Origin: Amoebophrya sp. A120
Taxonomy: Eukaryota > Protista > Dinoflagellata
DNA length: 64,000 nucleotides
Direction of reading: 5' to 3'
Assembly: GCA_905178155.1 (NCBI GenBank)
Contig: CAJINV010000001.1
Span: 1 to 64,000 of the forward strand
The position numbers were made by a program, and so were the translations under genes. The notes below the pieces were generated by a model that did not search any database, was not told where the DNA came from, and saw only the letters and a program-made list of their open reading frames with translations. This document shows positions 848-64,000 of the stretch, in pieces (within the stretch, counting starts at the first letter, position 1; each line of letters opens with the position of its first letter).

Positions 848-1521
848 ATGGAGGTTCACGAACTTGAGGCGGATCTGCATTTGGTCCGGTTCGCTGCCAC
901 CGTCGCTCGCGCCCGAGCGAATACCAACAATTCCAACATCGTCCGAGAGCTCCTGCTATGCATTGGAAATATGTCGGATCTGGAAGAATGCGAGATTAGT
1001 CATGCTTGTCGCACATCAGTCTTAAATCTGTAATGCATGAGCAGGAAAAAAGGACAATGAAAGCTTCTATGTGTGTCATGTAAAAATGCAGTTTGCCATC
1101 ATGCGGAAAGCGAAACACATCATGCGTGGTTCCGTATTGCAGAGCTCCCACCATGCACAAACTGGCATCACAAGTTTCCAGACCCAGACGTATTTGCAAT
1201 CGACACCTGCAGGATGGAACAGGTTGTCTCAAGTCTCTCGAGAAATTGCTTCGCGCAGTGGATGATGGGACCTATAAAGCCGTGGTGCTCACGACAAAGA
1301 ATGAAACAGCGGTCCCGCAACAGCTCGTCAATGCGGCTCGTCCCGATCGCGAGCTCGAGCCAAACGCAAACAACTTAAAGCGCCCACTTCCTGCGCGATC
1401 GCCCCAAAGCCCCGTCGCGCTCCAGGCCGAGGACAATACGAGTTTCGACGCGAACAGCAAGCTTCGTGGCGATGCGTCCAAAGATGCCAGTGCCTACTCC
1501 GTGCAAAAGCTATCGCAATAG
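848..1521 (+). CDS. Hypothetical protein, 139 aa; exons 848-956 and 1211-1521
   Basis: ORFs 848 and 1093 join in frame (VRELL|QDGTG) when introner 957-1205 plus the CCTGC repeat is removed. Confidence 0.6.
957..1205. mobile_element. Introner family A, degenerate
   Basis: Ends TATGCATTGGAAATATGTCGGATCTGGAA and TTCCAGACCCAGACGTATTTGCAATCGACA; DR CCTGC at 952-956 and 1206-1210. Confidence 0.85.
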
Positions 1522-4500: not shown

Positions 4501-5185
4501 GCCGCCGGCCCGCCTGCCCCCCCTTGGCCCCCCCCCCCTAACCTGGTTGCCTTTCCCCGGCCTCCCTCGCGCGCACGCACGCTCCCTTGTTGCCCCCGCC
4601 TCGCCCCCTGGCCCACCGACCCCTCCTGCATCTTGAGGGGGGCGATCCCGCCCAGGCCCCCCCCGCGCCGGACTGACATTTGGGCTGGCAGCCCGGGCGG
4701 GCCGGCGGGCAGTCGGGGCCATTAAAAATGAATATAAAAAAGCACAGGGAAAAACGAGAAAAAAGAGCACGCGTCACTGGGCGCGGCGGTATGGCTTACC
4801 AAGGTTTTTGGGTCCGCGCACGGTTGCCACCGAATTCAGAAGGTCCGTCGGTCCGCCCGACGGGTGGCGCCCATGAGGGGCTCGGCGGGCTTTGCGCCCT
4901 CCGTTTAAGCCCCCGCCGGCTTGGTTCGTGGGCCGCGAAAAGCGAGCCGCCGCGGCCCAAACCGCGCGGGCGCGGCCGCGCGCGCTTAGTGCTGCGCAAA
5001 AGGAATCGCGTAGCGGTTGACCACCACTGTATTGCCCCCCGCCCCGGCCGGGCACGGGAGTCATAGCCGCTTTGCCTTCGTGGCACGCAGATAAGCCCAC
5101 AGATAGCGATAGCAATTTTGGCGAGAATATTGCCTGTGGCAGATATCGAAGCAACGCCCTGCTCTTGGAATTGCAGGCGGAGCAG

Positions 5186-5496
5186 TATCAGCAGGGAACA
5201 CATTCCCGCGAGCACGCATGGTTTTTACTCATTTGCCGGCTTTGCGCCCACTAAAAGTCTTGTCACTCTGTTGAGTCTATTGCACATAGAGCAGTCTGTG
5301 GCTAGCAAGGACAGCTGCATCACAAAGACGCCTGCTTGTCCTTGTCCTGTTTACAAACAGCACTTCAAATGATCCCAGAACACGAATGCAAATTTTTCTC
5401 ATGCGGAAGCGGACGATGTGCGTCGCAGACGGGTCCGTAGATGCCAATCTGGGTGACAGCTATGTTGTGGGGGTGTCGGTATTTTCACTGAGAATA
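5186..5496. mobile_element. Degenerate introner related to 27993-28298
   Basis: Shared internal blocks (GCAAGGACAGCyGCATCACAAAGA, ATCCCAGAACACGA, GTAGATGC..TGACAGCTAT); TAT...ATA ends; flanks AGCAG/AATCG have diverged; left end is approximate. Confidence 0.6.
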
Positions 5497-8140
5497 AATC
5501 GCAGTGAAGGAGTAGGGTAGCCTCGGGCCTTGGCGTGTCGCGCTTCTCGCACTCGGAATACTCTTGATTTCCTTGTGGGCTACTCGCCGACGACTGTATG
5601 CGCTGACTTTCTTTGATGAGCGGCCTGGAGCCGAGAGGCTACAACTGGCGGTCTTTGGTAGGTCACAGGAGCAGGGTTTGCGTTCAATAGAACGTTCCAA
5701 ATCACGGGTAGGCATGATCATCATGGCCACCGGTAGGAAGAATCGTGGTTGGGCGACCGCCCGCACGCGCGCGCCTGCTCGCTTCGTCTGCCCACTGGTT
5801 AGTCGACGTGGCCGCGCACCAGATGAGCGCGATGGAATACTCAATCACCCGCCCTTAGACATCAAGAAGCTCCAGGACGTCGTCGCAGCTCCTTCCTTGT
5901 GTTGCTACTCAAACCTCGAACCCGGACCAAATTGCCACCGTGTCTGTCGGCCCCGGCCGGCGCCCAGGTCGGTTCGTTGGTGTCCGCATTTCTCTGTAGT
6001 TCCTCCGGAAATGGAATGGGGCCGCGAAAGTCCTAGCTTCGCCGGGCCGACGTATATACTTGCTGTCTTCTGTGCCCATTGCCATTGGCTTTTGGTGCGG
6101 AAAGTAAAAGGCCCGGCCTTCGATGCGTTTATGGAAACAAAGGCGAAACAAAGGCCGCCTGCTTGCGCTTGGTTTTCCGGGGGGCCGCAGGTTGTGCCCC
6201 CCTGCTTTCCTGCCTGCGGCTTCCGGTGGTGTTTGTGTACCGCCACCAGAGCTCCAGCTCTCTCATGAATGTGGCGCAAGCAGGAAGGGCGGGCAGAGGC
6301 GTCTTACTTAGGACCTGGCATTTCTATGGCGCCGGTGCTGACGCAAGGGAGGGCTGGCAGAGGCGACTCGTTCTGGGCCGTGTGCTCCTGTGGAGGTTGG
6401 CCGAAGCACCATGGGGGCGGTTGGCCCGTAGTAGTGTCTCGCCCTGTAGTCAGGGAGGGCGGAGCGACCGACTGAGGGTTTCGGCCCGCCTTCCCGCTGG
6501 CAAACCGACCCGCGGGCCTGTTGGTTCACCAGGAACAGGGCGGGCGGTCCTTCAGATCTCGGTGGCGGCCGAGCGGTTGGGGCGCTGCCTGGCCACCAGC
6601 TACAACTGACAAACGGGAACATAGATGCACGTTAAGCAGCCACTCGCCCGTCTGAAGAAGAAGCAGAAGTGCGCACGCAATTGTTTTGCTGGGGGGCCTG
6701 TGTCGGCTAGGACGACGCGCAACCCATCGCTCGGGGCCGCGCGGCACGGGCGCCGGCCTATCCGTGGTGTAAGTAGGCCCTTCGCACATAGTTGCGCAGT
6801 GGGTTTCCGTTTCGCCAGGAAGGCGCGGCGCACCCTCCCGGAAAAATGAGTGAAAGCGTTTTGTGGGCTGTTTGTCCATCTGATAGGCCAAATCCACCGA
6901 GCGCGGACGAGCTATCAAACTATGTAAATGCGCTATTAAGCTGCCACCGCGAACTGAGGCGACGCATATGCAGGCACCAAGAAGAAGCTTTGCGGTGTAT
7001 ACTCTGGCATCTTTCCCCACTACATAAAAACACCAGAAAAGATTCGACGGCGGGCGTCTTTTTGTTTGAATGTTGTACCAGCGCAGGGATCGGGCCATGG
7101 ACTCCCTAGGCGAGTCGCTTTGATCGCCATTTGGCCAAAGTGAATGAAAAACCTGGGAAGGGAAGCAGAATGATAGTGAAAAGTGGCACCATGATGAGGG
7201 GCCGGGAAAAAAGACCGAGCCCGCACACCATTGGCTTCGTTTTGGATTGGATGGGTGGCCCGCGCGCTCTTGGGCCTCGCAAAAGTCGCCGCGCGCCAAA
7301 GTTAGTGGGGCGACCACTTCCGGCGTGGGCCGGCTGGCTGAATGCCAAGGCAGGGCCGCACGCTTTCCCCAAGAGAGCAAATAAAACAAAGAAAAGCGTG
7401 GCCCGCCAAAAAGCGAAAGCGCGTCGGTCCGCATGTTGGGGGCCGCATTTCGGGCGCCCATGGGGCCGGTCTCGGGGCCTGCCCTCCCAGGCGGGGCCAT
7501 GGCCTGTGGGAAATTTGTCGCGCCCCGAGCCCGAAATGGCTGGCGCCAGCTTTGGGCCGCTATTTTTTTATCGGCCGCCGTGCCGTCGTTCATCGGATCC
7601 CCCAGGGGTGGCGGCATGTTCGTTGTCCGTAAGTGTGCCTAGTGCTGTTTTTTGGCTCAGACAAAAAACCGCTATTGCCTCACCACGCACCCTTGCTGGG
7701 GCGGCTGCTATTGGTTTGAGGTCAGAAGTGTGGGGCCTGTCCTAGGTCGGGGGTGGCCCCTATGCTATATATTTCTTTTTCTTATAAATTCAAATACATA
7801 TACTTCATCAGCGCGCCTCCATAGTTTCTCTTTCTTTAAGAAGCGCACAGGCAATTCTTCTTCTTCCGGATGTGCTTAGTGCCAATTTTCCGGCAAAAAC
7901 AAAATCGCAATCGGCGCACGACTCTCCTTTGTTTTTATTTTCACTGCTCCTGCTCGTCCTAGTTGTGATTGCAATGTCTGCCCGTCGCTTGCTTCGGTGT
8001 TGTAGCTGTGTTCTAGACGAGAACGGGTGTAATTGTTGTGAAAAAGACCTGATGTCGATGGAGCGCCGATTGATGAGCAGTACCTGCTGCATCAACAGCC
8101 AGAAAAGTACTTCTTCTTTCCTCCATAAGGCAACTTCATA

Positions 8141-9223
8141 GTGGACCAAGCTATCCTCCATGAACAGCGGAGACAAGAACGGAAGTTAGAAGCACAACTG
8201 CAGCAGGATGCCCTGGCGTTGTCGGACGGGGGAAACCATGGAAGCAACGAAAACACCATTGGGCAGCAAAGGAAGAAGAAGCAAAAGGGGCTCGTCGACG
8301 TTGCGTCAACCCTATTTGGGGAAAGTGAACAAGGCGCGGAGGCAGATGGATTTTTGGAAGAGAAACGAATGAGAAAAGGAAAAGAAAAAGCTCCTTTCAA
8401 ACAAGAAGACAAAGCGACAACACAAGGAGCCTCCGTCTTTCCCGAGCCCGCCTCTTCCTCTGGATCAAGTTCGTCATCGTCCTCCGCAACTACTCAAGCA
8501 GGAGGCAGCCGAGGGACAACGATAGGGGTCGCAGGGGTACCCGCAGCGGCGATGAAAAAGGAAAGTGTGCAGTTGTTGCTGCAGCAAGACAACTACGAGA
8601 ATTCCGAAGATGAAGACATCAATTCGGAACAAGAAAGTGATGACGGAGCTGAGGGACTGTTAGAAGAAGTTCGCAATCCGGCGAATCACAGAAAGTCGAG
8701 GAGCCCCACAAAAAGGAAAATGGCGGCTGCGAACAAAGACAAATCAAAAATCGCGCACACGAGGAAGGACCCGTACGCAAGTCCGACGAAGAACAACATG
8801 GATCCGATTTTTTCTGGGCGCCTCAGCGGAAAAAAAGCGAACAGTCATCTTCTAAAAAAATCAGACCACGAGCGGAGAATATACTGCGAGAACTGTCTTG
8901 TTGTGAAAGGCAGGACGGAAAGAAAAAGATGTAAAGGAATCCTGCAAATAGATCCGGCAACTACGATGGATTTTCTCTTCGCCAAGAAAATAAGGAATGA
9001 CAGTGTAAAAAAACAGCAGTCGAAGCAGATTCAGTTCGAAGAAAAGTATGGAAGGTTGTGCCGGTACTGTTCCATCATTCTGGACTACACGCAGTACTCT
9101 ATGTCGCAGCGCTTTAACGTATCCGTAACGGAGAACCTGAATGTCAATCACCTCATATCACAGCTGCCCCTGGTGCTCTTGTGTAATGAACGTGCAAAGG
9201 GCAGTTTTTGTATATGCATATGA
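8141..9223 (+). pseudogene. Unknown K/E/S-rich ORF with two CxxC pairs, probably a decayed gene or TE-derived
   Basis: 360 open codons with CENC and CRYC; no ATG at the start; in-frame TAA at 8126-8128 with protein-like sequence upstream. Confidence 0.35.
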
Positions 9224-10952
9224 GTATCTTAATCTTTTTCGCCACTTCCCCCCATAAAAAGTTGTTCTTGTATTTTCTCCTGCTTGCACTTGTGCGGAAG
9301 CGGATTTTTCCCCGTCCGCCCAGCAGCAGCTGCGAGCTTCGGCTTGTGATACCTTTGCAGATCCATAGAAGTACAAAACGGATTGTCATTTACGAAAAAT
9401 GAAAACCTGTTTCGATAGAGGCGATTGATATCTAGGCACGCGTTTTGATTTTGATAAAAATCGCAAGTCCTGATGGATGTGGAGCTAAAGATTAGCCCGA
9501 TGCAGTACCCAGTGATGGCGTCGGAGACAGTTGGATGCGCCTTCACTTCAAAGGGGGGACTCAGGGAAAGTATCTGCGTCTTGGACGGGGGACCGAAGGA
9601 TATGCAGGCCGAGCAACCGGCGCTTCTGCTCTCCGGGGAGTCCCATATGCTGGCCCCGTACTTTTTTTTTGTTGTTGTACAGGAATCTTGCTGTACTACC
9701 TTGCTCTACGTAGGGCTATTTTTCCTGAAAGTCTATGTCTGTTTAGCGATCAATTTGATTGGTAACCGCATGAAGTGCCTGTGAAAAGATTCAGACTTCT
9801 CCCGATTCCCGTGCAAATCCATTCGCGGAGCGTAGAAAGTTCATCCTCCTAGGTGGAGGTGTAAAGGAAATTCAGCAATAAAAAGTTTTTTATGAATAAA
9901 AAGATGCAGAATAAAGTTGAGATTCTGTCGCTCATTTGGAAAGGCAAAGGCCTCACAGGTACATCTCCGCGAGCCGCACTGAGAAATCGAAGGTCTATTT
10001 TCTAGCCGATTATCCTGGGCATGAGGGTTCTGTTGCTATATAATCGTGCCATCTTCGGTTACTGACCAAAGAAAGAATGCAGGAGACATGCTGTCTGAGC
10101 TGATTTTTTGACTTTGAGAACCCCGGCTTTTGCAGAAAAAGATCCCGAGAACTTGGTACTGGTTGTTTTTGCAGAAGAAGTAGCTCACCGATTTTGATCT
10201 TGTCTGTATGACAGTACGCGTGGTTGTTGGTCGCCTGAAACTGTTGCACAGGATAATTATGGGCCTGATCGAGCTGCTGCTGCCGGCTCTTGGTCATCCA
10301 AGCGTGTTTTGGTATATCTAGTCTAAGTGATGACGAGGTGTTGCATTGCTGGCCACGGGGGTGAGCCCACTCAGTACACAGAGATAGAAGATCAAAAACT
10401 CGCGTCAGGAGCATCGAATGAAATTGTAATGCATAAGGTGTGCGAGTGCACCAGCAACCATTCCCAGCCCCGCAAGGGCACTTGTCTTGCGAGGTTGGCA
10501 AGTGAGGCGTATTGTCCGCCTTTTTAGGGGTAGAAATAGAGCTGCTAGAGTAGCATGACGAAAGATGCACTCTTCCCCCAAACAGAAACAGTGCGACCGA
10601 AATTTGTCATGCGCCACTTAAAAACTGGGCTTCCAGTTCCAACAGCCGGCGCTTTTCTGCATTACGAGGCTGATGTTGATGGCTTCGGTCCTCGTGACTT
10701 CACGACAAACCATCTCTCTGCGGAAATGTAGTGGAGGTTTGTTCGGCTTCGGTCGGTTTAGCATTACAAGTTATTATCTTCATGTCAGTTTGAGATTTCA
10801 AATTCGATCCTGGAACCCCCTTACCTACATTGCTTCTTCCATGGGAAGATGTTCCTACTCGTAACTTAAACTTTTCAATATAGATTCATCTCAATCAAAA
10901 AACAAAAAAATTTAAGATAACGCGCGACTTTCGCTTTGAGGATGACTTGCAG

Positions 10953-11480: not shown

Positions 11481-13770
11481 TTAGCACGGCTTCGTCGATT
11501 TTTCATCGACAAGCGAAGTAGTAGATGAGGAGCGCTCATGAGAATAGTGTCAATTACTTTTAGATTTTCCGGATCCGATGCAGGAAGCACTATTAACATT
11601 TGCACGCAGCATGCACCTCTGCTCCATGATTCGATTCAATTTGATGAATGCTAAATATAATGATAAACGCACAACTCGCGCAAAAGCAAAAATAATGTGA
11701 AGAGATAGTACTAGATAGTAAACGAACGTGAGTCGGCGTCGTCGCCGTGTGTGGGTGGCATGCAAGTAACAGAAAAATCAACTCGAGCAACAAAGTGTTT
11801 ACTTATACTTATATTTTTCGACTTTATCGCAGCTGACTTTATCGCAACCGACTTTACCGCAACCACGACCACCAGTAAATGTAAAAGTATGAACATTCAC
11901 GTCATGTTTGGGCAAACAGTTATAAATTTTCGTCTAAATGACGGTGACAGGGCTTAGTTATTATCTGACCCATGTTCGACGTTCTGTCTGTCGGCGGTCC
12001 ACTTCTTGAACAATTTTTAGTAACTCGTTGATCCCACTACAAGGTGCTTCTACACAAGTCCTGCTCACGTCGTTTGACCTGACGAACGTACAGTAAAGCA
12101 GGAGGTCCACCCTTTTCGGCAGAGGAAAAACTGTGTCTGTTCCGTTTAGACACACACTTTCGATCGGCTCCGCGGCGCTTCGAAGAGGAGATAGAAACTG
12201 CAGAGCATAGTGCTTCTTCTAAAGATGTGTGCCCGTCTGGGCTGTCAAGCTCGGTCTCGCAGTTCGTGCCTGCAAAAATCGTGATTTTGTGGGATGGCGT
12301 GAGTGATCAGACCTAGAAAATGAGGGAGACCGAGAATACCGAACTTCACTTGAACAAAATTTATCAGCATTACGTCGAGAGTGCTTTTTATCGTTTTCAA
12401 TCGTCTTCATAAACGTAATCCTACATCAGTGTAGTACGTCGTACTTTGATTTCGCGCAGAAATCTAGAAGACTTTCCAGACGTGGCATCATTTAGCTGCT
12501 GGGCACAAGGACATAACTCTGCGCTTCGTCAACCGTCGGGCAGTACTTATAAAGCAAGGGGGATCCGTAGAGGGGAAGTATGTGATTCTGCTGCGCGTAG
12601 GTACTAGAAGTACTCGAACATACCAACTTCAGCGAGACGCCACGTTTTCTTTTTGGTTGAGTACTCGCGGCTAACACACGTCGGCATCAAATGCCCAGTA
12701 GTTCACTCATGAAATGCAAGAAAAACAAGCTAGGTCCAAAGACAGTAAGAAATGTTTTTTTTCCCACTGTTCCACACAACTATCCTGTAAGTCCAGGCTC
12801 TACAACTAGTTCCCGCGTTGAACCTTGTTCGGCTGGCGATCGGTGATGAACTTATTCGGTGGCAACTATGGAGCTGCCGCTGCCGCGGAAGGTGCTCTCG
12901 ACTTCGTTTCCAACTTTTCACAGCAGGTGAACGAACACGGGCTAAAAGGAGCCACAAAACGCGTAGCCCAGAGTATTTCGTCATCAACTGTATCGAACTT
13001 CGAGGCATGGCGCAATCTGCGGCAGTTACCCGATTTGATCTCGAACTCGCACAGCAAACCGGACAGCGAACTACTTTGCATTAAGCCTGCTTTATGCTCT
13101 TTGCTTTATTCAGATCATGTCCGAGCAACCACGCTTCTTCTTCATCGTCTCTTGAGCAACTACTTGCAAATGTGATTGTAGTACTATCACGCTGCCTTTT
13201 CGACAAAAGATAGCATCGCTGCTGTCACTGATGTCCGAGTGTCTCGGTTGTATAGAACCTCGAAGACGAAGTCCTGAATCATTCAAAACACAACGAAGCC
13301 ACGGATATTTTTAAAGAGCAGTACTTCATTGACACGTACAAGCAGTACCTGACCAATCGAAAAGAAAGTGGCTTGGGCTTAATTCGGTATATTGAAATAT
13401 GTTTGAAATAATATTATTGCTTTGCGTACATTTTTACTAAGCACAGTAAATTTGGACAAAATGTATCCAAAATTTTGCCCACTTAGAGAATGCCGCTTGT
13501 CACGCTGACTTACTAGGATTGACATCGAACACAAGCTTTGTCATGCAGAAGCAAACCGCATCTGTACTGTTTCTGTTTGTATTTGTAGTACGTGCACGGA
13601 TATATTATGCTGTGGATAATTTAAGTGGTCAGGCAACTAGGTGTCACGCATGTGTTTGGCGTCGTCATCTCATACGGAAAATGCATTCACACGATATAAG
13701 GTTTTCGTTTCAGCAGCTGTTGTTCATTAACACAAAAATCACAATGAGAAACAAAATAACGATCTTCCAG

Positions 13771-15770
13771 GGACCTGCGAGAGCTTGTGGGCAAGACGCT
13801 AAAGTCTCCTGCGGCCACCTTCATTGGTGCGCTAAAACTGCAGGGAGTCCCGATCAACGGCAGGCTGGGCAACCAACATTCCTTAACCCCAAGCGATATT
13901 GTCGCACAACACCTGGCGGCGAAGGGCATTCACGAAGGGCACCTCGAGTATACCCGAGTTTATTCTTCAGTTCTTGCTTCTAGTAAATATAAACCTAAAG
14001 CAAAACGACAATTTAGGAAAGTGCGCTGTTGCTGTGACAAATCAAGAAACCAACAATGCATCAAAGATTGATGAAGTTTATCTTTGTGTAATATAACTAC
14101 AATTATTATTTTATTTCAGGTTGGTGGACAGGTTGCACGGAACCACGGTGCAGGATTGGGCATCTGCTGAGCGCGATATGGAAGTGAATTCAGTACACCA
14201 CCGAGCAGCTACAGCAACGACATTGCATGACTTTCGATCAAGGAGGGCAGCGGCAGCGCGGCTCCTGGCGCGTGTCTGCCAGATGCCAAGCTGATGGAGA
14301 AGATTATGATGATGAACAAAAATTCAAATGAATATTGTCTAGCAGTTGCAATCCCATGCGGCATACTCATGCAGAAGAGAACGTAGTGGTGCTACGGCGA
14401 GGCCTATCCCTACGTATAATCCCCCAGGCTTCCGCTTTTTGCCTGCAACTGCTTGCGAATGATGTACGGCCCTCGGCCTCGCAATACCAAGTAGATGAAG
14501 ATTTTTTAGAAAGCCGGCGGCTGGACTTTCGCACAGTGCAATGTCGTTGCCGAGTGTCTTTGGCTTTCATAACTTCCTGGTTGGCTTTGGGAATGGAGGA
14601 GCTATATTTTATGATCGCGCAAAGCAATGTCCTGTTCCTAGGAAGTGAAGATGCTCTACTAGCATTTTCTTGTGTGAAGGAGATATCCTTATCCCTCCAG
14701 ATCCAGCATCAGGAGTATGTATGGTGCACTAGTCGTGATCCCGCGGGATTGCAGGTACTGATGTGACCCCGAATCTTAAAATGTGATGCTGCTGGCCCTA
14801 AGGTTGACTTCCTTGCCATGACAAGGACGTAGTCGCGCACGTGAATAAGATCGGAGAGACCTGCCCCACCACCACCGCAGCAGCTCGGCAACAACATGCT
14901 GCAACTCGCGGTTTTACAACCAGAACTGCCCCGACGGTCGGGTATCCAGCATGCGCTCATTCTCTGGTATGACTTTCGCCAGTTGGCCGCGTTTATGGAA
15001 GAAACAAACTAACTTGTTGCCGGCCGATGAAACGCCTACTTTTTCCGCTTGATTAGACTCATATCATTGTTAGTTTCTGATGATACTTCGGATTGTAATT
15101 TGTTGTTGCTGCCCCTGCCTTCCCCTGGCTGCGAACAAGCTGTTACTTTTCTTTTATCTTCTGTCTCCACGGTTGCAAGCGAAGCTGTTTGTTTCTTGCA
15201 TAGTCCATGAATTTGTGAAGCAGCAGGAAGACGGCGTTGAGCCGGAGAAGCAGCAAGCGTTTTTCTTCCAAGTGTGGGAGTAAGTCATATTTTCACTAAT
15301 GTTAGTTATGCTTATGGCTGCGCTTTCCTGCGTTGAGGTTGAAGTTCAGTTGTCTGGTAGCATGGTTTGAACAGAAGTATTTGAATATCAGCAAAGACAA
15401 CATGGAAGAGATGAAGCAACAATGAAAATACATCTTCTGTCTAAGGTTTCTCGTCGCGCTGAACGGTGGAGCGGTATTTGTGAACCGCATTCTCGAGAAT
15501 CGCACCCAGTTTGAACGCCACCGCGCGGAGAGAACGTACTTGGCGTTGTTCGGCCCGAACGGGTTGGTCCCGGTGCAAGACGACGGTGTGACACCCCTGA
15601 TACCCTTCGATTGGGACGGATTTACAAATAAGCAAATCCATGACCTGCTGCGGACCAAGCTCATCAGCCCCGTCCCACCGGCGAGCAGATTCGCGGTCTT
15701 TCAAACGGAAAAGAAGGCAATTCTCGACGGTAGATTGCAGGAGCGGGGCAACACGATCGGTGGGAGGTGA
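13771..15770 (+). pseudogene. Exon-like fragments of an unknown gene (~13771-13982, from ~14120, ~15446-15770)
   Basis: Protein-like open segments next to AG/GT signals and AT-rich spacers; could not be assembled into a full model. Confidence 0.25.
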
Positions 15771-27337: not shown

Positions 27338-28731
27338 ATGTCCTCCTCCGTGTCCTCGTCAGGCTCCTCGATGAGTTCTTCGCGGCGGTGCGTGCCGCTG
27401 CGCATGTTTGATGCCGACTCCCCGTGGCTCTTCCACCAGCAGGCTTTCTCCCGCATTGCGTCCCGCAAGAACATTCCCCTGCAAGTGGTTCTCCCCGGCG
27501 ACCGCTGTGTGTGTGGAACCCTGATCGACCGAATTCAAACCTACCCGCGCCCGAGTCAGCGGCAGCGAAGCAGTGCAAGAAGTAGAAGTACTAATGCCTC
27601 CACAACTAGCACTTCTACTTCACCGTCCTCCCGGTCTACCAGTTCCTCTCGCGATCAAGCAAGGGACAGCCAAGCTAGCACGGCCCGCGGTGCTGTTGGA
27701 AGCGAGCCGCACATGATCACAGAGGGCGACAATGCACGCGCTACACAGAGCACCACTTCTCCCTCCTCGGCCTCTGCGGGATTGTCAGGAAGAAGAACCA
27801 CTACCACAGCCCAAGAGCAAGATGAGGATGAGGAAACGACACCAACCTCTACTTCAACGAATACTGCTAGTGAAGTTGTAGATGATGGTGGTACAACATC
27901 AACTCCAGTAGAAAATAACAACATCGACGACGAAGACACGGAGGACGACGGGACTACGGAGGCGGAAGCTAGCATGAACCATGGGTTTGTCATATCCTGA
28001 TTAACAACGTCCCCACACCGTAGTCAAGTTGGTAAATGAATCTGCAACACAAATCTCCAAGTTATGGGAGTTATGCATGACAGGTTTCCCTTTGTTCCGT
28101 CTGCAGCGCACTAGCGCTGGTTTGCAAGGACAGCCGCATCACAAAGATGCCTCCTTATGCTGTTTACAGAATTACAAATCCCAGAACACGACGGCAAATC
28201 CCTCTTTTCCGGATGTGCATATACAGATTAATTTTTCTGTAGATGCAAATCAGCATGACAGCTATCAGGGGCTGGGGACGACGTTTTTAGATAGGATATG
28301 TCATCCACGCCACCGTCCCGCGTTTGGCCGTGCTGCGGCCGCTCGCGCTGCAGCGGTGCGCCGGAACGTTCTTCCTCTTTTTCCTCCAGTTTCTCGTCTG
28401 CGTCGCCGTCTTTTCCGGCTTCGCCGTACTTCCCTTTGACGGAAATGACGACCTCTACCCGCGGTGGCCGACGTCCGCGCAGGTCGGGGGGTACGCCGGG
28501 CTGTGGAGTTTGCACGCCTTCGCGGTGGTCGCGACGTTGAAACGGCGGTCGGCGGCCATGCTGGCGGTTTACCGCGCCCTCCTGTCCGCGCACTGTCTTC
28601 TCACCTTCGTGGCGGCGTCTGAGGGCCTGTTCGATCTGGTGGTCTGTTTTCTCTCCGTGCTAGTCGTCCTCGACGCAGAGAGACACGGCGAGCTGTTGGA
28701 GCGCCAGGTGTTCGTGCGAAAATTCTCCTGA
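27338..28731 (+). CDS. Membrane protein, 360 aa, S/T-rich N-terminus and several C-terminal TM helices; exons 27338-27992 and 28304-28731
   Basis: ORFs 27338 and 28324 join in frame (HGFV|IHATVPRL) after introner removal. Confidence 0.8.
27993..28298. mobile_element. Introner, 306 bp
   Basis: Ends TATCCTGATTAACAACGTCCCCA and TGGGGACGACGTTTTTAGATAGGATA; DR TGTCA on both sides. Confidence 0.92.
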
Positions 28732-38124: not shown

Positions 38125-40700
38125 ATGACGTTCACCTTCCATTTCGCCGGCGGCCCGGAGCAGCACGATTTGAAACAGCAGACCACGTATCAAGTGTAAA
38201 AATGTCTGGGTCTGTAAGAATGCAACTTGTCATGCTAAATCTGAAGCATGCAAAAATCTGTGCTGCATGATTACCAAAAGTCGTCCAGTTTTGACCAAGT
38301 CGCGAGGGAGTTTCTCATGCAGAATAGGCATGAGAGGGATCGCACAGAATCTGTCATGCTAGGTCCTGCATTCCAGACCTCATGGGTCATGGAAAAGCTG
38401 CATGACAAATCGCGCATTCTTCCAGACCCAGACACTTTTGCACTTGATACCACGGTCGGCTCTGGACCCCACCAGGTGGCGATTATCGACAGCCGGCACC
38501 TGGCGGCCAACCAGGCCATGGCGGAGGAAGTGGCGAAACGGCTCTGCCTGCGGGATGAAGACGTCCACGGGGACAAGAACTCCTGCACGGTCGTTTTGTT
38601 GATGCCCTCCGCGGAATCCCGGCCGGAATTCATCTCCTGTGCCGAGGTGGCTATGAACGCCCTAGAGGCAGCAACGTCGTTGTTGACGAAAGTGACCAGC
38701 ACTATGGAGGCGGAAAATAAGTCGGGCAAGGAAGTAGAGATGAACCCGACTGAGAAATTGAAAGTTTGCTGTCTGGACAGCTACTACAGTGACCCGGAGA
38801 TGGCGCTGAGGTACTTGCTGCTGCCCAGAAATAAAACATCAAACCCGGAAGGAGGTGGTGGAGAAAAAGACCACAAGCCTGTGAAAATTTACGGGAACCG
38901 GAAGCATTTACTCCAAATGTTCTACAAGTTTTTCAATGCCGCCTACAAACGGCGCGCCTTCACGAACACGGCCGTCGCGCACGGCTGGGAGAAGCAGCAG
39001 GACGCGATTGACACACTCCTGAAATTTCTCCGCACTGCGACGAAGGACGAAATCGTCGTGCCTTCGAAACTCGGAAAGCCGACCATGGTAGCCAACACGC
39101 CCAAGCTCGAAGACGCGGACGAGGAACCAGCTTTTGCACAAATGAAAGAGAAACACAAAAATCAGTGTTGCCCGCCGGGGCCGCACCGCCCCGCGATCTG
39201 GCATTTTCAGAAGGACGTCGCGGGCCTGACCAAAGAAGACTTCACCGAGAAGGTGGGCAAGACGCACTACATAGACAACGAGTACGTGGTACTGTTCTGC
39301 AGACCGAGTGATTTTTCCGCCGAGGAGAAGTACACAAAGTTCGTAAGCGCACTCTCGGAGTTGAATGACGCCCACATGGACAGCATGACGTTTACGGTGG
39401 TGATGGTCTTAGACGTATGCTGAGCAAAACCGTTCCCACCCCTTTAGGTAGTCAAGCCGCATCACAAATCCGGGACCTTATCGTTATCCTCATTCTACTA
39501 GCATGACAAACTACCCGATTTTTGCATTGGAAAATGGCCCTCATGGGGCTGCGCATGAGAAACATTTTAGGCATGCCACTTCGCACGACAAGGCTGAGAT
39601 TGTTGGGACGTTTTTCCAAAGGATAAGACGACCACGAAAAGAGCCCGCTCGACGCCTTCACGAAGAATTTTTGGTTTTTGCCCGTCATGAGTCGGTTGAT
39701 AAATTTCTGCCACTTGTGCATCTTCTGTTCAAAAAACGAAGAGGAGTTGTTGAAAGAAACGTTCGCACACGTTGGACAGACAGAGCACGTGGTGCAATTG
39801 TTGCAGCACAACTTGGTGCCCTTTCCGCGCCTCCACTTCCTGGTCACGATGTCCTGCGTCTCGCATCACGACCCTGGAGCCGGCTTACAGATTTTCGGGG
39901 AAAAAGCGGAAAGCGTCCTGCAGAAGCACGACGTGACCTCCAGCTGCGTGTCTTTCTGCGTCGCGAATACGAAAGAACTCACAATTTCGACAGGAGAAGG
40001 AGCGAGCGCAGCTGAGCATCATTTTCCAAAAGCCGCCGTGACCACGCAGGAAATTTTCGACTTTGACAGAAAACTGCGGGCGAAATTTGCCTGCACGCGT
40101 CGGAAATGCAGTCCCCTGGTCGTCCCGTCCGCCGGGCCGGAGCTCCGGCGTAAGTCGCACATTTTACGGCAGGTGGTGGTTAGCAGCAGCAGCTTTCCGG
40201 GCCTGAAACAGGTGTTTTTCCTCATGCCGGGGAAATTACTCGCGAAAAAGATGTTTTTCCCGCTGTTGAAACAGTTCTCCGACGACGAGTCGCTGGACCT
40301 GGACAATCCGCTGAAGTGGACCAACCCCGGGTTCGGGTTAGACAAGGCAAAAGCCAGTGCTTTAGACGACTTTGAACTGATGGAAGCCGAGTCGAGCTTG
40401 AACGATCTGCGGGCGGAGTACAGCCACCATTTTGGGGATTACGAATCCGAGTCCGAAAGCAGTGCCGAGGACAACGAGTATCTATCGGAGGACGAAATAA
40501 ATGCAGCACAGCACCATCATGCTGGTGGTGTGGGAAATACAAATAATAATGCGAAGCACATGAACATGAACTACAACAACAAAGACAACAAAGCCTTTAC
40601 CAACGCTGCAGCCTCGATTCGAGAAGAGTTTCTGCAATTTTCCCACGACATCGGGACCTGGAGCAAAAACTACCCGTTTGTCAAGTATCAAGCAAGTTGA
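38125..40700 (+). CDS. Highly divergent tubulin-like protein with a long N-terminal extension, 697 aa; exons 38125-38187, 38455-39415, 39631-40700
   Basis: NLVPFPRLHFL and ELMEAESSLNDLRAEY plus an acidic tail resemble beta-tubulin; no GGGTGSG motif; both introner removals are in frame. Confidence 0.7.
38188..38449. mobile_element. Introner family A, 262 bp
   Basis: Ends TATCAAGTGTAAAAATGTCTGGGTCTG and CAGACCCAGACACTTTTGCACTTGATA; DR CCACG. Confidence 0.95.
39416..39625. mobile_element. Introner, 210 bp
   Basis: Imperfect TIR TATGCTGAGCAAAACCGTTCCCA and TGGGACGTTTTTCCAAAGGATA; DR AGACG; fuses ORFs 38248 and 39678. Confidence 0.88.
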
Positions 40701-40847
40701 AGTTTTTCAATATCTTCATCCACTCTTTCTCATGCTTTTAGCTTTTACATTTCAGTGTTTCTATCGTCTTTGTTTTTTCTTGCACAGCACTTCACCTCCC
40801 TACCGGAAATCTTCAAATTTTCACACCACATCAGGCCGGCCCTTCTG

Positions 40848-41402
40848 ATGGAAGGGAGCAATCTCTTTCTCGCTTGCTGTGCGCCGAACTACGAGACCCG
40901 AACCAAAGCGATGAAGAAAGATCACGATGGTGAAGTTGTAACCACAACTGAACACGAAGCTGCGGACAATAAAGCCACTAACAAATCCTCCGTGGTCTGT
41001 TCGAAGGAGCGGTGGTTTCAGGTGGTGCAGAAGATTTGCGAGGCTCTGTGCTCTACACTGGAGGACCCACCGGAGCTGGAGACCGAGTGCACCGCGGAGG
41101 AGTTCGCGAAGACGGACCGAAATCAGGACGGTGTCGTCCAGGCCGAGGAGTTTTTGCACCACGTGTATCCACAGTAAATTTCCTCTACACGACGGCGTTG
41201 TACAAATGTGGCTTCTGCATGACAAACTTTTCGTCCTTCAAACCTCTTCCGCGTGGGAAGTTACTTGTGGTGCATTTTGTACGTGTGCGGGAAATTTGTA
41301 TTGCATAACGCGTTCGGGATACTGTGCTGTTTCAACAAAGTCCGGGAGATGGAGTGCATATCCGCCTTTCGGAAAGCAGAGGAAATGGTGCAGAAATTGT
41401 AA
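40848..41402 (+). CDS. EF-hand protein, ~135 aa; exons 40848-41165 and 41313-41402
   Basis: Canonical EF loop FAKTDRNQDGVVQAEEF; in-frame join HHV|FGILCC; start uncertain. Confidence 0.7.
41166..41307. mobile_element. Introner, 142 bp
   Basis: Imperfect TIR TATCCACAGTAAATTTCCTCTACACG and CGTGTGCGGGAAATTTGTATTGCATA; DR ACGTG/ACGCG. Confidence 0.85.
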
Positions 41403-48000: not shown

Positions 48001-49372
48001 TGGAAAAGGAACAGGAAAAAGATATGGGACTCTCAAACGTTACATTCTCAACTGTTACATGAATTTGTCATGCAAAAATAGCGCCAGCATCTACATGCCC
48101 AAGCTGCTTCGCATGACAAGTTCTCGACGCGCTAGATAGCATTATAATCTGCTCCAAACCTGTAATGCAAAAGGCGCAACGTTTTCCCTTGCACTTTTGC
48201 CATTCTTGCATTACAAATTTCATGTAACAGTTGAGAGTGTAACGTTTGAGAACGCCATAAGAGACGTCGCCCGCATCGCGGAAGCCGACGCGCGCGTGTT
48301 GTGTCAGAAACTCGAGTTTCACGCGGAGCGGGAGGTGCGGCAAGCGACGGAAAGATTGGAAGAACATGTCCGTGAAAAGGCGGAGCTGTGGATATGCATT
48401 GCAAAATTATCGTACTAAGTATGAATTGCAATACAAATTTTTCCAAGTGACGAGCCGTAGTTTGTAATGCAGATTTCCCTTTTAGGCCAGAGATCTGTCA
48501 TGCAGGACTGCAGTCAGTATTTTGTGCGATACATTTGCACAGGATAGTGGAAACTACTTGCCGACTTGGAGGAAAAGATCAAGGCGGCACATATCAACTG
48601 CAAATATGTCATCTGGGTCTGGAAACTTGTGATGCAAACCAGGGAATACTGGGCGTACTGTCATACGTGGCCAAGCATGGCAAGTTTTTGAGGTGCTATG
48701 TGTAGCGTATTCCGCATGGCAGACTGCGCTTTTGCATGACAGACAAAGCGATCTTTTTGCACCTACGCATGACAGAGGTCCGAGTCATGTCAGACACGCA
48801 TGACAAATTTGGCAATCTTCCAGAGCCAGACATATTTGCAAAGCATAGCACAGGTCGACCGGCAATTGCTCGTGAAACAACTCGACGTAGTGATGCAGGA
48901 AAATCAACACTTGCGGATGGGCTACGACAACTTCGATCCGGGAAAAGTCGCACTGAAGGGCACCTTCTCGCCCCGAGAGGAACCACCGGTTTCTTTGTTC
49001 GGGGGCTATCATCAATTTGGAGGTACAACAAGTATGATCTCGCCCAAGAGCAGGAGGACCAATGGTGCAAATAACAGCACCAAACCTGCGACGTTTGCGA
49101 CAGGGGGAAACAACTCGAACTCGAACTACAAGACGAGTAGCAAGAGCGGCGGAAGCGGCAGGGGGAGTGTAAAAAATATCGCAAATAATTCGTCCAAGCC
49201 GCGGGGAAATCACTTGTTTTTTCCGGAGGACGGGACAAGAAAGACAAAGGACTCGGGTCGTTCTTTTGCGGGAGTTCGTGGGTCTAGTACTTCAAGAGAT
49301 GAAATGAATTTTCAGGCGGGAAGCAGCCATTTGCCACGCTATGCCGATCAAATGTGGAACAAGAATCCGTGA
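45039..49372 (+). CDS. Armadillo-like plus C-terminal coiled-coil protein, CIP2A-like, 1223 aa; exons 45039-48022, 48265-48392, 48552-48591, 48853-49372
   Basis: LGILANLLRGDSVVQSFVK and RDLLDDLL resemble CIP2A N-terminal segments (recalled, not searched); heptad-rich C-terminus stays in frame across three introners. Confidence 0.7.
48023..48259. mobile_element. Introner family D, 237 bp
   Basis: ~45-bp TIR starting TATGGGACTCTCAAACGTTACATTCTCAACTGTTACATGAA; DR AAAGA/AGAGA. Confidence 0.95.
48393..48546. mobile_element. Introner family C, 154 bp
   Basis: Ends TATGCATTGCAAAATTATCG and CGATACATTTGCACAGGATA; DR GTGGA. Confidence 0.93.
48592..48847. mobile_element. Introner family A-like, 256 bp
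   Basis: Ends TATCAACTGCAAATATGTCATCTGGGTCTGGAA and TTCCAGAGCCAGACATATTTGCAAAGCATA; DR GCACA. Confidence 0.93.
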
Positions 49373-51026: not shown

Positions 51027-53696
51027 ATGGTGCGTGGTCCTTATGCTAAGCCCGTTCTGAGACAATCACAATTTTCCAATTCTGAACACGAGCATTCGAG
51101 CAACAATTCTCGCAGAACACAACAACAACTCCTCGGAGGTGTACTACAGCCTACTAACCTAAAGGCAGCTGCTGCTTCAACATTGTCCACTAGCAGTGTA
51201 GCGACCATGTCGGCCCGTCGCGGAGCTACTACTTCTACCCCACCAGGCACAGCAGGTGCCCCAAGAACGACCTCCACGAGGACTACTACGTCGAAGAACC
51301 ACCGCCCCGCAGCTGCAGGAGCCTCTCAGTCGACCTCCGGACAACATCATGTTGGTCAACATCTGGCACAGTTCCCCTCGGAGCAGGCGTTACGCATCAG
51401 CCGCGAAAACGTCGCCGCGCTGGACAAAAGAATGCAGCAGCAGGAGGTGGAGCTTGGCGCTGGCGCGCAGGATTTGGATTCTGAGGCTGCAGGAGCAGCT
51501 GTTATTAACAACAAGACTGGCACCATTGGCACAACAACTTCTTCTTCTACCCCCCTATCATCAACTTCCGTCTCCGTTCCGCAGCCGACGTTCTTTTCAC
51601 TGACCGTGGCGGAACGAGTGTTGCTGACGGATTACTATAGCAGTAAGCTGTGTCACTGTTTTGTTTTTGATGAGAAGAAGATGCACGCCCTGGCGAAGCG
51701 GAAGCGGTTTTCCTGCACCAGCATATCAAGTGCAAAAATGTCTGGGTCTGGAAAAGTGTAAACTTGTCATGCAGATTTTCCATGACCCATGAGGTCTGGA
51801 ATGCGGCTCGTAGCATGACAGACTCTGCGACGAGGTCTCTGCCATGCCTATCCTGCATGAGAAACTCCACCCTAACTTGGTCAAAAGTGGACAGCTTTTG
51901 GGAATCACGCAACACAGATTCTTACATGATTCAGATTTACCATGACAAGTTGCACCTTCCAGACCCAGACATTTTTGCATTTGATACAGCAAGGACGAAG
52001 ACGACCGTATCGCGTCGGAGGAGGCGAAAATCCAGGCTCTGCTCCACCGCTGCCGCAAGCTGCGCGAAAGCATGTCGGCCGCCGCTCTGTACTCCGCGGT
52101 GGTGCTGTTTCGCGCGTACGCGGCGCGCGTCTGCATCCCCGCGGACGATGAGGAACAGTGGGTGGTTGCACTGTTGACCGCGATCCTTGTCGCCATGAAG
52201 GCGGAAGAATGCGTGATCAAGCCCGAGTTCATCAAGGGCCTCGGCCTGCAACTTTTCGAAAATTATAACTATGATAATACGTCAAACGAGGACGAAGAAA
52301 CCGAAACATTTTTCAAAAATCGTGGTGGAGCGGCTCCTGCTAGTCGCACTAGAACAAGCGCAACTGCGGGTGGACCTCCGACTACTAGTACGGCAACAAC
52401 CACAGAAGCAGAACAGACGTCGCCCTCTTCTATGGCGTTTGTTTACTCTGGAGGACTACTTTCTGATCTCCTACAGCGTCTGTCTGACAATGGTGACAAG
52501 GGTGAACAACAAGGACTTCCACCTGGCCCTGCAGGTGGTGCGGCTAGTAAGAACCACGACGGAATGAAAATTTTAAACCACCAGACGAGCGAAAATGCTA
52601 CTTCTATTGCTATTGCCCGGGTCACGGAGTTTTGTTGGCAGAAAGCAGTCGAGAACGAATTGAACTTCCTGACCGCCCTGAATTTCCAAATTACTGTGGA
52701 AAAACCCTTCGCGGTCGTTGCGTTACTCCAGGAAATGGCGGAGCGGGAGTGGATATGCATTGCAAAAGCATCGTACTAGTAGAAATTGCATTGCAAATTA
52801 CCTCAGCATGACAAATGGAATTTGTCATGCTGTTTTACCTTGGGATGTAGATTTGTAATGCATAACTGCAATTACTACGAAGACGAACGAGTACGATATT
52901 TTTGCACAGGATAGTAGATCCAGGACATCATCATGAACGATCCCCCGAAAAAGGCGATCGAGCAGAAGATAAAATCTCTCCGGTTCAAACTGACCGCGAA
53001 GCAGATCATCTCCGCTGCCATCCTGGATGAGGCACTGTATTGCCCCGTCAAGCTGATTATGAATGAAGCAAAAGTACAACGATCACGCTACGAGTGTTGT
53101 AGATAAGTAGCATCTTCACAAATTTTTTCTGAAGTAGGAAAAATTGAATTTGTAATGCTGATACCTAAGACTAGCCAGATTTGATGTCATGCCTAACTGC
53201 AAAACTTACTACCACGAGAACAAGTGTGATACTTTTGCAAAATTGCATACTGATCGCCCTGGGACTGTTCATCTCCACCGGTCATCGCATCCCGGCCGAA
53301 GCCAAAGTTGCGCTGCAAGGGAAGCCGCAGGACGTCGCCATGGTGAAGCGGATCGTGAGCAAAATTCAGGCATTCGCCGCGATGAGTGCCCCCGGCGGAG
53401 TTGTGACATCGAACGGCAGCAGCTCAACTGCGGGCGTGGCGGTTCTGAAGGAATTTCCCTACGCGGGGTTCTATCCGAGGATCGCGGGCAAAAAGTTGTC
53501 CGTCGAAGAAAAACAGTTGGATCACGTGATGAAAAAGACCCGAGGCAAAAGATTTTTACCAGGAAGTAGAAATAAGAGCACAGCTGCGGGCTGGAAGTCG
53601 GTGAAAAGGGGAGCTGCAACTGGTGCGAGTCGGGCAGCTGGTGATGCCAGTTCAGCGACGTGTCCGACCTCGACGGACCACTGCTTATCAGGTTGA
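51027..53696 (+). CDS. Cyclin H-like transcriptional cyclin, 679 aa; exons 51027-51723, 51992-52753, 52919-53057, 53255-53696
   Basis: Cyclin-box segments LTVAERVLLTDYYSSKL, SAVVLFRAY, TAILVAMKAEE, ENELNFLTALNFQITVEKPF, LYCPVKLIALG. Confidence 0.8.
51724..51986. mobile_element. Introner family A, 263 bp, inverted relative to 38188-38449
   Basis: Ends TATCAAGTGCAAAAATGTCTGGGTCTGGAA and TTCCAGACCCAGACATTTTTGCATTTGATA; DR CAGCA. Confidence 0.96.
52754..52913. mobile_element. Introner family C, 160 bp
   Basis: Ends TATGCATTGCAAAAGCATCGTACT and AGTACGATATTTTTGCACAGGATA; DR GTGGA/GTAGA. Confidence 0.94.
53058..53249. mobile_element. Introner, 192 bp
   Basis: Ends TATGAATGAAGCAAAAGTA and TACTTTTGCAAAATTGCATA; DR CTGAT. 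Confidence 0.9.
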
Positions 53697-62000: not shown

Positions 62001-64000
62001 GTGGTGGCCAAACGTGATCGCTGCGCTTTTGCTCGGTCGGCCGGAAAATGATGGCCGGGGAGCTCTTGTCCGTCACTTTTTCCCGGGCGAAAAGCGATGG
62101 CCAAAAGTGATGGCCAAGGAGCTCTCGGCCACCACTTTTGCCCGATCGGAAAATGATGGCCGAGGAGCTTTCGTCCCTCACTTTTGCCCGACCGGAAGCA
62201 AAGCGATGGCCGCCAAAAGTAGTGGCCGAGGAGCTGCTTTTGGGTGGCCATCACCTTGCCTGCCCGAGCGGAAGGTCATTGACGGCCAAGGAGCTCCTGG
62301 CCGCCATTTTTGCCCGGGGAGACAGGAAGCAACGTTTGCTCGACCGGAAAGCGATGGCCCAACTCTTGCCCGGCCGGAAAGTGATGGCCAAGGAGCTCGC
62401 CGCCCTCACTTTTGCCCGAGTAAAAAGTGATGGCCGAGGAGCTTCTGGCCACCACTTTTGCCCGAGCGAAAAGCAAGGTCAAAAAGTGATGGCCAAGGAG
62501 CTCCTCCCGGCCACCCATCACTTTTGCCCGAGCGAAGGCGAAGAGATCGCCGGGGAGCTCTTGGCCATCACCTTTGCCGTGCCGGAAAGTGATGGCCGAG
62601 GAGTTGATCCCTGTTTTCGGGCGGGAAAACAGGGGCAGTCGGGCTTGTCGACGCTTTCTGTATCAAAATCACACTGAAGTTGATGCGCGGCTTTGTTCTG
62701 CGGCTCGCCAGGGCGTGCAGCATAACACTCTGCGCGACGGTATGGCGTACAGATACAGGGGAGGCGTTGAATCTGTTACACGAAGCTTCTAGACGAGACC
62801 TTCTAAGCACATTCGTTTAGAATTATTTTTCTAAGTGCCTCCTATAGATTATAGCAAAGGGGGAGGGCAAAGTCGTTTCACTATTATTATAATTATCAGG
62901 CTAAAGACCTACATTCTGATCACGTTCATCAACGGCACCGTCGGGACCGTGGATTTCATTCAGAATCTTCTCCTCGGCAACTTTCCCGTGATCTCCAAGG
63001 CCTTGCCCCTCGCCGTCAACGTCGCGCACTTGGTCCAGATTTCCGTGCCGATTATCAGCTTCGCGGGGGCGTACATTGGGTGGCAGTACATTCGGGCGCA
63101 GCGCAGCTACATATCAAATGCAAATCTGTCTGGGTCTGGAAGAGTGGCGGAACTTGTAATGCTGCTCATGCAACACAGGTCCTGTGTTGCATGAGCAGCA
63201 AGAGGAGTCAGTTCTTGGCACGCGGAGAGGGCTTTTGTCATGCGTAACTAGCATCAAGAAGCTCTCAAAAAATCTGTGATGCTAGCACCAGCATCACAGA
63301 CCTGACCGGTCATGCAAAATGTGCTTGATAAGCCCCGACCCTTCCAGACCCAGACATGTTTGCAGTTCATACTACATGGCCAAGTACCACTACGAACAGC
63401 AGAAGCCGCCGCTGCCGCACCCCAGCTTGCCCTGGCCCCCGCCGGCGTTGCCGCCACCCGCGGTGCTGGAGCACATGAGCCGTAAGTAGGGGAAATCATA
63501 TTCATATATCATTCTTTTTTTGTAGTGTGCAGCTTATAATTTGAATTTCTGCTAGTGTCATCTACAACTAGTAGGTCTTGGTTGTGATAAAAAAGAATTG
63601 AATTGAAGTACTTCAACAGCGGAACATATACAGAAATCGGAAAAACATGGCACTACCAATAAAGATAAACTACGCCTCTCCAGGTGAAGTCGAAGCGTTC
63701 CAGAAGAGGTTGCAAGACATGACGGACAAAGACGGCGCTCTGATCATGGAGGTTTCGGTATGGAGTTCTCAAACGTTACATTCTCAACTGTTACATGAAT
63801 TTATGACGCAAGAATGGCAAAAGTGATAGGGCTGATCTTGCGCGTCTTGCATGACAGATTTGGCGCCGATTGTCAGCCTGGTTGGCCCTCTGAGAATTTG
63901 TCACGCGAAGCAGCCTGATGGTGTCGACTCTGAAGGCAATTTTGCATGACAAAAAATCATGCAACAGTTGAGAGCGTAACGCTTGAGAGCGCCACACTCG
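59024..64000 (+). CDS. Membrane protein with a long S/T/G-rich disordered N-terminus, 3'-partial; exons 59024-61422, 61547-61708, 62900-63111, 63377-63481, 63684-63758, continuing past the window
   Basis: GT-AG and introner joins give a continuous TM region (FLGDVFGGAYALMLATLGY...WLKTYILITFING...SFAGAYIGWQY). Confidence 0.75.
61967..62605. repeat. Degenerate tandem array of ~46-bp palindromic units, about 11-12 copies
   Basis: Consensus approximately GAGCTCTTGGCCATCACTTTTGCCCGnnCGGAAAGTGATGGCCAAG. Confidence 0.9.
63112..63371. mobile_element. Introner family A, 260 bp
   Basis: Ends TATCAAATGCAAATCTGTCTGGGTCTGGAAG and CTTCCAGACCCAGACATGTTTGCAGTTCATA; DR CTACA. Confidence 0.95.
63759..63996. 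mobile_element. Introner family D, 238 bp
   Basis: Same TIR as 48023-48259 (TATGGAGTTCTCAAACGTTACATTCTCAACTGTTAC); flanks TTCGG and CTCG (cut by the window end). Confidence 0.9.

Follow-up and report, generated by a model that had tools for sequence, protein, structure and literature searches.

The first 64,000 nucleotides (nt) of contig CAJINV010000001.1 from the dinoflagellate parasite Amoebophrya sp. A120, referred to here as the window, hold a run of intron-containing eukaryotic genes on the + strand, and coding exons in these genes are interrupted by elements with terminal inverted repeats (TIRs) that typically begin TAT, end ATA and are flanked by a 5-bp repeat. The question raised by this locus is where such inserts are cut out of the message and what cuts them. 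A preliminary description of the window proposed that about 20 elements act as precise non-GT-AG introns, removed as TAT...ATA plus 5 nt by a dedicated excision system working beside the spliceosome. Our data support precise removal from RNA under one rule, and we are highly confident that the cut is fixed at N|TAY...ATA|NNNN (Y, pyrimidine), 1 nt before TAT/TAY and 4 nt after ATA. This code rests on one 64-kb window and mostly on one RNA study.

We searched for the elements with an unbiased scan that considered every pairing of flanking repeats with inverted ends. It returned 12 TAT...ATA elements with a 5-bp repeat and 0–1 with repeats of 3, 4, 6 or 7 bp; at a gapped TIR score of at least 22 there were 13 exact-repeat elements, compared to a mean of 0.07 (maximum 1) in 15 shuffles. 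The 34 ends of 17 elements start with TAT (32) or TGT (2), followed by C or G, and have an A run at end positions 11–14, with A at positions 11, 12, and 13 in 28, 28, and 32 of the 34. Self-matches within the window group the copies into families, and three same-family pairs lie in opposite orientation within + strand genes (38188/51724, 48023/63759, and 957/48592). With both TIRs and a target duplication of fixed length, the elements look like non-autonomous TIR transposons of the type known as MITEs (miniature inverted-repeat transposable elements). In one metagenome assembly, a search with the TIR pattern found at least 142 loci; in one family, an exact 5-bp repeat flanks 103 of 122 distinct copies, whereas exact repeats of 3, 4, or 6 bp flank none of them. 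No empty-site form was found among the listed joints of one DNA run (X1), and the metagenome loci matched the window at the elements only. Summed DNA depth over the element bins reaches 1.6e5 against ~30 in the flanks, a sum that is not a copy number.

The inserts are the introner elements of Amoebophrya A120 as in Farhat 2021; the preliminary description had already pointed to the invasive introners of Amoebophrya with their inverted and direct repeats. In the parts of that paper considered here, ~65% of 66,565 RNA-supported A120 introns are non-canonical, and the introners form families, have repeats that start TAT + 7 nt + AAA, a predicted hairpin and direct repeats of 3–5 nt (5 bp in the legend to Fig. 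S19), and occur as RNA-supported introns in genes that mix them with GT-AG introns, as in the window (PMC7789003). The window ends match this TAT-start pattern (seven looser bases, then the A run), weakly so in the old copies at 9119 and 13026. The TIR families of A120 in Gozashti 2025 are likewise DNA elements, of ~150–340 nt and unknown superfamily, one of them with integrase-like open reading frames (PMC12130899, in part).

RNA contigs were mapped to 7500–16900 and 27000–42000, with the predictions for elements written down before mapping. Contig sets X3, X4, and X6 come mostly from one study and X9 from a second, their RNA label being presumed; X1 is a single DNA run. The window contains 27 non-GT-AG introns, a higher number than the preliminary estimate because 9 old ones have lost their repeat: the 5-bp repeat is exact in 13, has one mismatch in 5 and is decayed (2–5 mismatches) in 9. 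One further, related element, 40685–40834, is GT-AG in the same register. Transcript-derived support exists for 22 of the 27 (RNA joints at 12, an RNA loose end at 1 and deposited proteins at a further 9), and in all 22 the removed length is the element plus 5 nt, as originally proposed. The introns, in the register given above, are as follows.

956..1209, + strand: predicted CT..TG intron; TAT at 957, ACA at 1205, exact repeat CCTGC; frame by codon model only
6966..8131, + strand: AT..GC intron, 1166 nt; repeat with 1 mismatch; RNA loose end at 8130 matches 6934–6963; slide -3 to 0
9119..9460, + strand: old GT..AA intron, weak stem; RNA joint 9118>9461 in X3, X4, X6; zero slide
10010..10259, + strand: old TT..TA intron; RNA joint 10008>10259 in X3, X6; slide 2
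13026..13258, + strand: old TT..AC intron, T-TAC start; RNA joint 13025>13259 in X3, X4, X6; zero slide
14176..14575, + strand: old AT..TT intron; RNA joint 14175>14576 in X3, X4, X6; zero slide
14609..14851, + strand: old TT..AT intron; RNA joint 14607>14851; slide 1
14993..15206, + strand: old TT..CC intron; RNA joint 14992>15207 in X3, X4, X6, X9; zero slide
27992..28302, + strand: element intron, exact repeat TGTCA; RNA pieces 27987>28299 in X3, X6
31674..32108, + strand: HslU element intron, repeat GCCCC; RNA joint, 435 nt
32155..32465, + strand: HslU element intron GT..GC; RNA joint, 311 nt; in-frame GT-AG alternative unused
32871..33025, + strand: HslU element intron at LLPII|EG, repeat TCATC; RNA joint, 155 nt
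35059..35318, + strand: old CT..TC intron, decayed repeat; RNA piece begins at 35319; P0001 fits -1/+4 only
36966..37109, + strand: element intron, repeat CTGAA; RNA pieces 36961>37106 in X6; P0001
38187..38453, + strand: element intron GT..AC, repeat CCACG; one-sided RNA piece begins at 38449; frame
39415..39629, + strand: element intron GT..AC, repeat AGACG; RNA pieces 39410>39626 in X3
40685..40834, + strand: GT-AG intron that shares the elements' build and register (G.TATC...ACA.TCAG); donor side only, from an RNA piece ending at 40684
41165..41311, + strand: element, repeat with 1 mismatch, candidate intron; codon model prefers another frame
48022..48263, + strand: element intron; P0002; 5' repeat copy retained in protein (EK|DV)
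48392..48550, + strand: element intron, repeat GTGGA; P0002
48591..48851, + strand: element intron, repeat GCACA; P0002; orientation opposite to 957
51723..51990, + strand: element intron, repeat CAGCA; P0004; orientation opposite to 38188
52753..52917, + strand: element intron, repeat with 1 mismatch (EW|IQ); P0004
53057..53253, + strand: element intron at KL|IALG, repeat CTGAT; P0004
57105..57521, + strand: old element intron, repeat with 2 mismatches; P0003
57581..57804, + strand: old element intron, repeat with 3 mismatches; P0003; only -1/+4 or 0/+5 fit
63111..63375, + strand: predicted element intron, repeat CTACA; frame by codon model
63758..64000, + strand: predicted element intron GT..CG, ACA end; at window edge, downstream exon outside; orientation opposite to 48023

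The 12 RNA skips comprise six in 27000–42000, as three joints and three pairs of abutting contig pieces, and six joints in 7500–16900. In the HslU gene, contigs of X3 and X6 skip three elements with removal of 435, 311, and 155 nt, each the element plus 5, and the last joint (32865>33021) restores LLPII|EG as predicted. The same contigs also skip five GT-AG introns and are therefore mRNA-derived. At 27993, 36967, and 39416 the abutting pieces leave out 311, 144, and 215 nt, respectively, again the element plus 5 in each case. Deposited proteins imply this length at 35060, 36967, 48023, 48393, 48592, 51724, 52754, 53058, 57106, and 57582. P0001–P0003 were each one 100%-identical match per exon query, labelled Amoebophrya sp. 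A120, and P0004 is likewise identical; these proteins are products of this organism's annotation, possibly built on the same RNA, hence they are not independent. The introns at 957, 38188, and 63112 rest on reading frame, with a one-sided RNA piece in addition at 38188.

None of the 13 non-canonical junctions tested can be slid to a GT-AG register, in agreement with the preliminary description. At 32156 an in-frame GT-AG alternative that is 3 nt shorter (32155–32462, 308 nt) is present, and it was rejected by the RNA joint, which uses the predicted 311 nt. The 13 RNA joints in 7500–16900 divide into six GT-AG, six non-canonical and one from a paralogous contig; the joint 16645>16772 (AG..AG), which lies outside the rule in a paralogous-repeat contig with loose ends on both sides, was dropped before counting. 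For the metagenome copies, a codon model was trained on exons of the window; it assigned a frame to both flanks in 29 of 82 usable copies (9 were strand-discordant and 44 uncalled), and 23 of the 29 imply removal of the element + 5 modulo 3 (p=5e-7). At the metagenome loci, a test for stop-free frames discriminated weakly (34/81 vs 22–24/81 in shifted controls), and the codon model was used instead.

Could the elements instead be lost from DNA? Ciliates eliminate DNA sequences, and a similar removal in some life stage, with RNA copied from an element-free template, would suit ends that begin TA, an alveolate host and a single DNA run as the material mapped. However, X1 depth is 0 at every listed RNA joint (in contigs, from which rare variants drop out), X1 contigs pass from exon into element at flank depth 24–32, and one passes from inside 27993–28298 across its 3' end into the exon. 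Thus neither the joined form as DNA, the mark of ciliate-type elimination, nor the element-free alleles sought by the preliminary description appear at the listed joints in this one run. Elements and GT-AG introns are also skipped in the same RNA contigs, and an RNA-run piece of depth 2.8 lies within intron 14176–14575, whose spliced form has a depth of 72.7, although this piece might be DNA. We consider removal at the DNA level very improbable.

Young elements cannot reveal the cut position, because their perfect repeat lets the joint slide over 6–7 positions. The first hint came from an RNA piece whose first base, 35319, lies 5 nt past the ATA in an old element that has no repeat. All six non-canonical joints in 7500–16900 fit N|TAY...ATA|NNNN, four with zero slide and two with a slide of 1–2; among them, 14992 was the one pair marked out before RNA mapping, and Y at +4 was allowed only after TAC was seen at 13027. 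Over 13 non-GT-AG junctions, the -1/+4 register fits 13, the 0/+5 register 7, and the -5/0 register 6, the last only where a perfect repeat permits slide. Six junctions exclude both 0/+5 and -5/0, and a seventh old junction permits 0/+5 and not -5/0. A single register is possible at five junctions, namely 9118, 13025, 14175, and 14992 (by RNA) and 35058 (by the RNA piece and P0001, which reads RTVPV across 35059–35318 and is compatible with -1/+4 alone). The RNA loose end of the 1166-nt intron 6966–8131 is compatible with -1/+4 as well. The two end motifs would fall at one register by chance with a probability of ~7e-4. The earlier wording of the rule, as TAT...ATA plus 5 nt or the element plus one repeat, is therefore not supported, since six junctions exclude it and the 5-bp repeat is dispensable for removal: old introns with a decayed repeat are still removed.

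With the register fixed, T+2, A+3, Y+4, S+5 (C or G), A-7, T-6, and A-5 are invariant in 13/13 junctions, and +1 (G3 T4 A3 C3 of 13) and -1 to -4 are free. C-6 occurs in three cases, each either canonical or without junction support. The window holds three 3' ACA ends and one TAC start, an apparent 5'/3' asymmetry in which TA would be strict at the 5' end and ACA tolerated at the 3' end; the metagenome coding set showed no deviant ends (TAT 10/10, ATA 13/13). Among the 27 introns, G+1 is present in 6 and a terminal AG in 3, never both, so that none has the GT(GC)-AG ends of U2-type introns. A purine opens the next exon at 5/13 junctions, which gives no purine rule, and neither intron class shows an evident branch-point consensus within its last 14 nt. 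The end-to-end duplex averages -15.9 kcal/mol in 13 non-canonical introns vs -4.3 in 11 GT-AG introns. In the host canonical introns between 9658 and 33236, acceptors are often A-rich and have no pyrimidine tract.

The 5' end of the elements resembles that of the host introns. Host GT-AG introns have a GTA donor in 11/11 joints and GTAY in 10/11 (10 distinct donors), and all 13 non-GT-AG introns start N-T-A-Y, with U+2 and host-like donor bases beyond it; the -1/+4 register thus aligns the element TAY with host GTAY donors from position +2. On balance, we favour excision by the host U2-type spliceosome, which would act here in an additional mode guided by the hairpin. The elements would have spread as non-autonomous TIR transposons that make 5-bp target duplications, and loss of 1 + 4 flanking nt would restore the original exon exactly in either orientation: exactly because 1 + 4 equals the 5-nt duplication, and free of orientation because the element ends are palindromic. 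In the transcript, the stem pairs U+2/A-5, A+3/U-6, and Y+4/A-7 would bring the two sites together and set the acceptor by distance, and N-U-A-Y would be read as a donor like the host G-U-A-Y. G+1 and the terminal AG pair in step 2 of splicing by the spliceosome, and the two requirements would have been dropped together.

The N-T-A-Y match to host donors tips the balance somewhat towards such a relaxed spliceosome and away from a separate machine. The GT-AG intron 40685–40834, which shares build and register with the elements, points the same way. In Table S4 of Farhat 2021, by our reading of its numbers, T stands at +2 in each of the nine most frequent A120 motifs, and each of the nine A25 motifs opens with TT; the A25 repeats start with TTA and two purines, which on our reading again places T at +2 and A at +3. 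For Amoebophrya, the same source, as covered here, gives 83 of 89 spliceosome proteins as detected and U1 snRNA (small nuclear RNA) as not detected (PMC7789003).

Several observations weigh against the spliceosome. Position +5 is C/G in 13/13 element introns vs T/A in 9/11 host donors, and the TA at +2/+3 could be a coincidence of roughly 1-in-6; the motifs of Table S4 may in part reflect aligner preference. Where an AG lies in frame 3 nt upstream of the acceptor, it is ignored at 7/7 supported sites (13027, 14994, 31675, 32156, 35060, 48393, and 48592), even with G at +1 (32155). Among the old introns there is no drift to GT-AG (G+1 1/9, AG 1/9), and young metagenome copies are unbiased (G+1 6/23, AG 1/23). 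From the ignored nearby AG and the lack of drift it follows that distance from ATA, and not AG, sets the acceptor. The stem itself would bury donor positions +2 to +4; moreover, terminal pairs have P<0.2 in 6/13 whole-intron folds, and the intron at 9119 is nearly stemless (-5.2). Genes carry the elements in both orientations, and removal thus requires no internal signal that depends on orientation. Finally, the contig data contain no observation of a lariat, a branch point or dependence on small nuclear ribonucleoproteins, and none of the RNA-contig joints listed links a GT-AG end to an element end.

Much of this would suit a dedicated non-spliceosomal machine that reads the same -1/+4 code, for example a structure-specific nuclease and a ligase, as proposed for Euglena. 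Such a nuclease would measure 1 nt and 4 nt from the stem base, and its products would be circles or linear RNA. The absence of any preference for, or drift to, G+1 or AG, the ignored in-frame AG (7/7) and the use of both element orientations are consistent with this scheme, as is the GT donor 9658 of an alternatively spliced gene, which joins AG acceptors only. The build also parallels the Euglena introns, 5'-N3CDG...CH'GN5-6|R, with a paired triplet, a short 5' spacer and a longer 3' spacer (PMC12501133, in the part consulted). Against it, the 5' end agrees with host donors from +2 to +4, the GT-AG intron 40685–40834 has the same build, and exon–exon pairing that could hold the cut exons is absent; ATA is kept in 13/13 despite a decayed stem or a mismatched partner (9119 and 13026), suggesting that sequence is being read. 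The scheme is possible, though we lean away from it. We hold with equal reserve the wider proposal that most A120 introns are cut by a second pre-mRNA splicing machine of independent origin and Euglena-like plan, reading only N-TAY...ATA-N4 and the terminal stem. As to the preliminary description, coexistence of its excision events with GT-AG introns in the same contigs is borne out; that a separate system performs them can be put forward only tentatively.

Self-splicing RNA, or excision from RNA by the element's own transposase, deserves very little credence. The introns are strongly structured and carry their signals at the ends, as this idea would have it; however, interiors are unrelated between families, both orientations are used, old copies retain just a few terminal bases, and an Rfam search of the window gave 0 matches.

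Comparable non-GT-AG introns are described from other lineages. In the part of the Euglena study drawn on here, nonconventional introns are alike in having a paired terminal triplet at fixed spacers, no GT-AG ends, GT-AG introns alongside and a proposed MITE origin; they differ in their CDG/CH'G triplets, spacers of 3 and 5–6 and a purine that opens the next exon, compared to TAY/ATA and spacers of 1 and 4 in the window (PMC12501133). The window introns thus share the paired ends with fixed spacers, and not the euglenid motif, spacer lengths or purine start. Circular excision is reported for Euglena. Fritillaria borealis also has introns with TIRs and a target duplication, and it offers a precedent for the spliceosome reading, as its U2 spliceosome is conserved and splices transposon-derived introns that lack GT-AG; the preferred ends there are AG-AC and AG-AT, with an intact U1 5' end, whereas +1, -2, and -1 are free in the window introns (PMC11282704 and PMC13326754, both in part).

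For A120 itself, the text of Farhat 2021, as far as considered, describes splice sites as variable relative to the hairpin, the border as unknown and the first and last two bases as lacking a signature (PMC7789003). In contrast, the window shows a fixed -1/+4 register, a dispensable repeat and nearby AG ignored, although the figure logos of that paper may show more. Gozashti 2025 gives duplication lengths of 2–5 and splice-site models that vary by family, with no single register in the 19 of 58 A120 rows considered; six large families have GT at 26–28%, which fits several registers and was not used as support (PMC12130899). We found no fixed register for Amoebophrya introns in the literature searched, a search whose scope leaves out most subscription papers. 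What appears to be new is that the code is fixed at -1/+4, that the repeat is dispensable and that AG is ignored; the elements were already described.

If true, the fixed rule would explain why the borders look random: the aligner slides within the 5-bp repeat, and free +1, -2, and -1 give 64 possible motifs. It would also explain why insertion is harmless, as 1 + 4 nt equal the 5-nt duplication in either orientation. The code permits correct gene models for A120 and shows where a branch or circle junction would lie, which bears on whether a spliceosome acts without GT-AG or a second splicing machine is at work. With Euglena, Amoebophrya would be the second lineage to have a spacer-and-stem splice code, and were the second machine real, any TAT-ended transposon with a 5-bp duplication would become a scarless, orientation-free intron.

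Several other inserts were seen in the window. The stretch 5299–5393 is an element relic related to the 27993 family. A second relic, 33058–33156, sits within the GT-AG intron 33050–33236 and was rejected as an intron on that ground. The candidate 9047–9256 (exact 5-bp repeat, TIR 13/20) was rejected as the RNA contig reads through it, from 8130 to 9118, and 53769–53873, located after a stop codon, was not counted. At 18581–18729, outside both RNA-mapped segments, a strong TAT...ATA stem (-21 kcal/mol) without a repeat is likely another old intron.

The gene encoding P0004 (51027–53696) has a 679-aa product with no Pfam or PDB match. Its KL|IALG junction is as the preliminary description had it; the cyclin name given there is unconfirmed, as a 41%-identical relative matches Cyclin_N at E=0.046, below the cut-off. 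The GT donor 9658 is alternatively spliced within 9658–10916, to AG 9958 (X6) or AG 10916 (X3), and the 9658>10916 form skips two small exons and the non-canonical intron 10010–10259. A direct repeat of 349 bp, 95% identical (16921–17269 and 18142–18490), flanks a G+C-rich patch, and an exact 50-bp duplicate that includes an exon start (61918–61967 = 62894–62943) lies around a degenerate 46/59-bp tandem array. G+C-rich patches of odd composition, some between genes and some within them, occur at ~1550–2700, 3500–5100, 5700–7750, 17300–18000, 20050–20500, 25500–26800, and 54100–54900, and the G+C-rich stretch at ~7100–7750 falls inside the 1166-nt intron 6966–8131.

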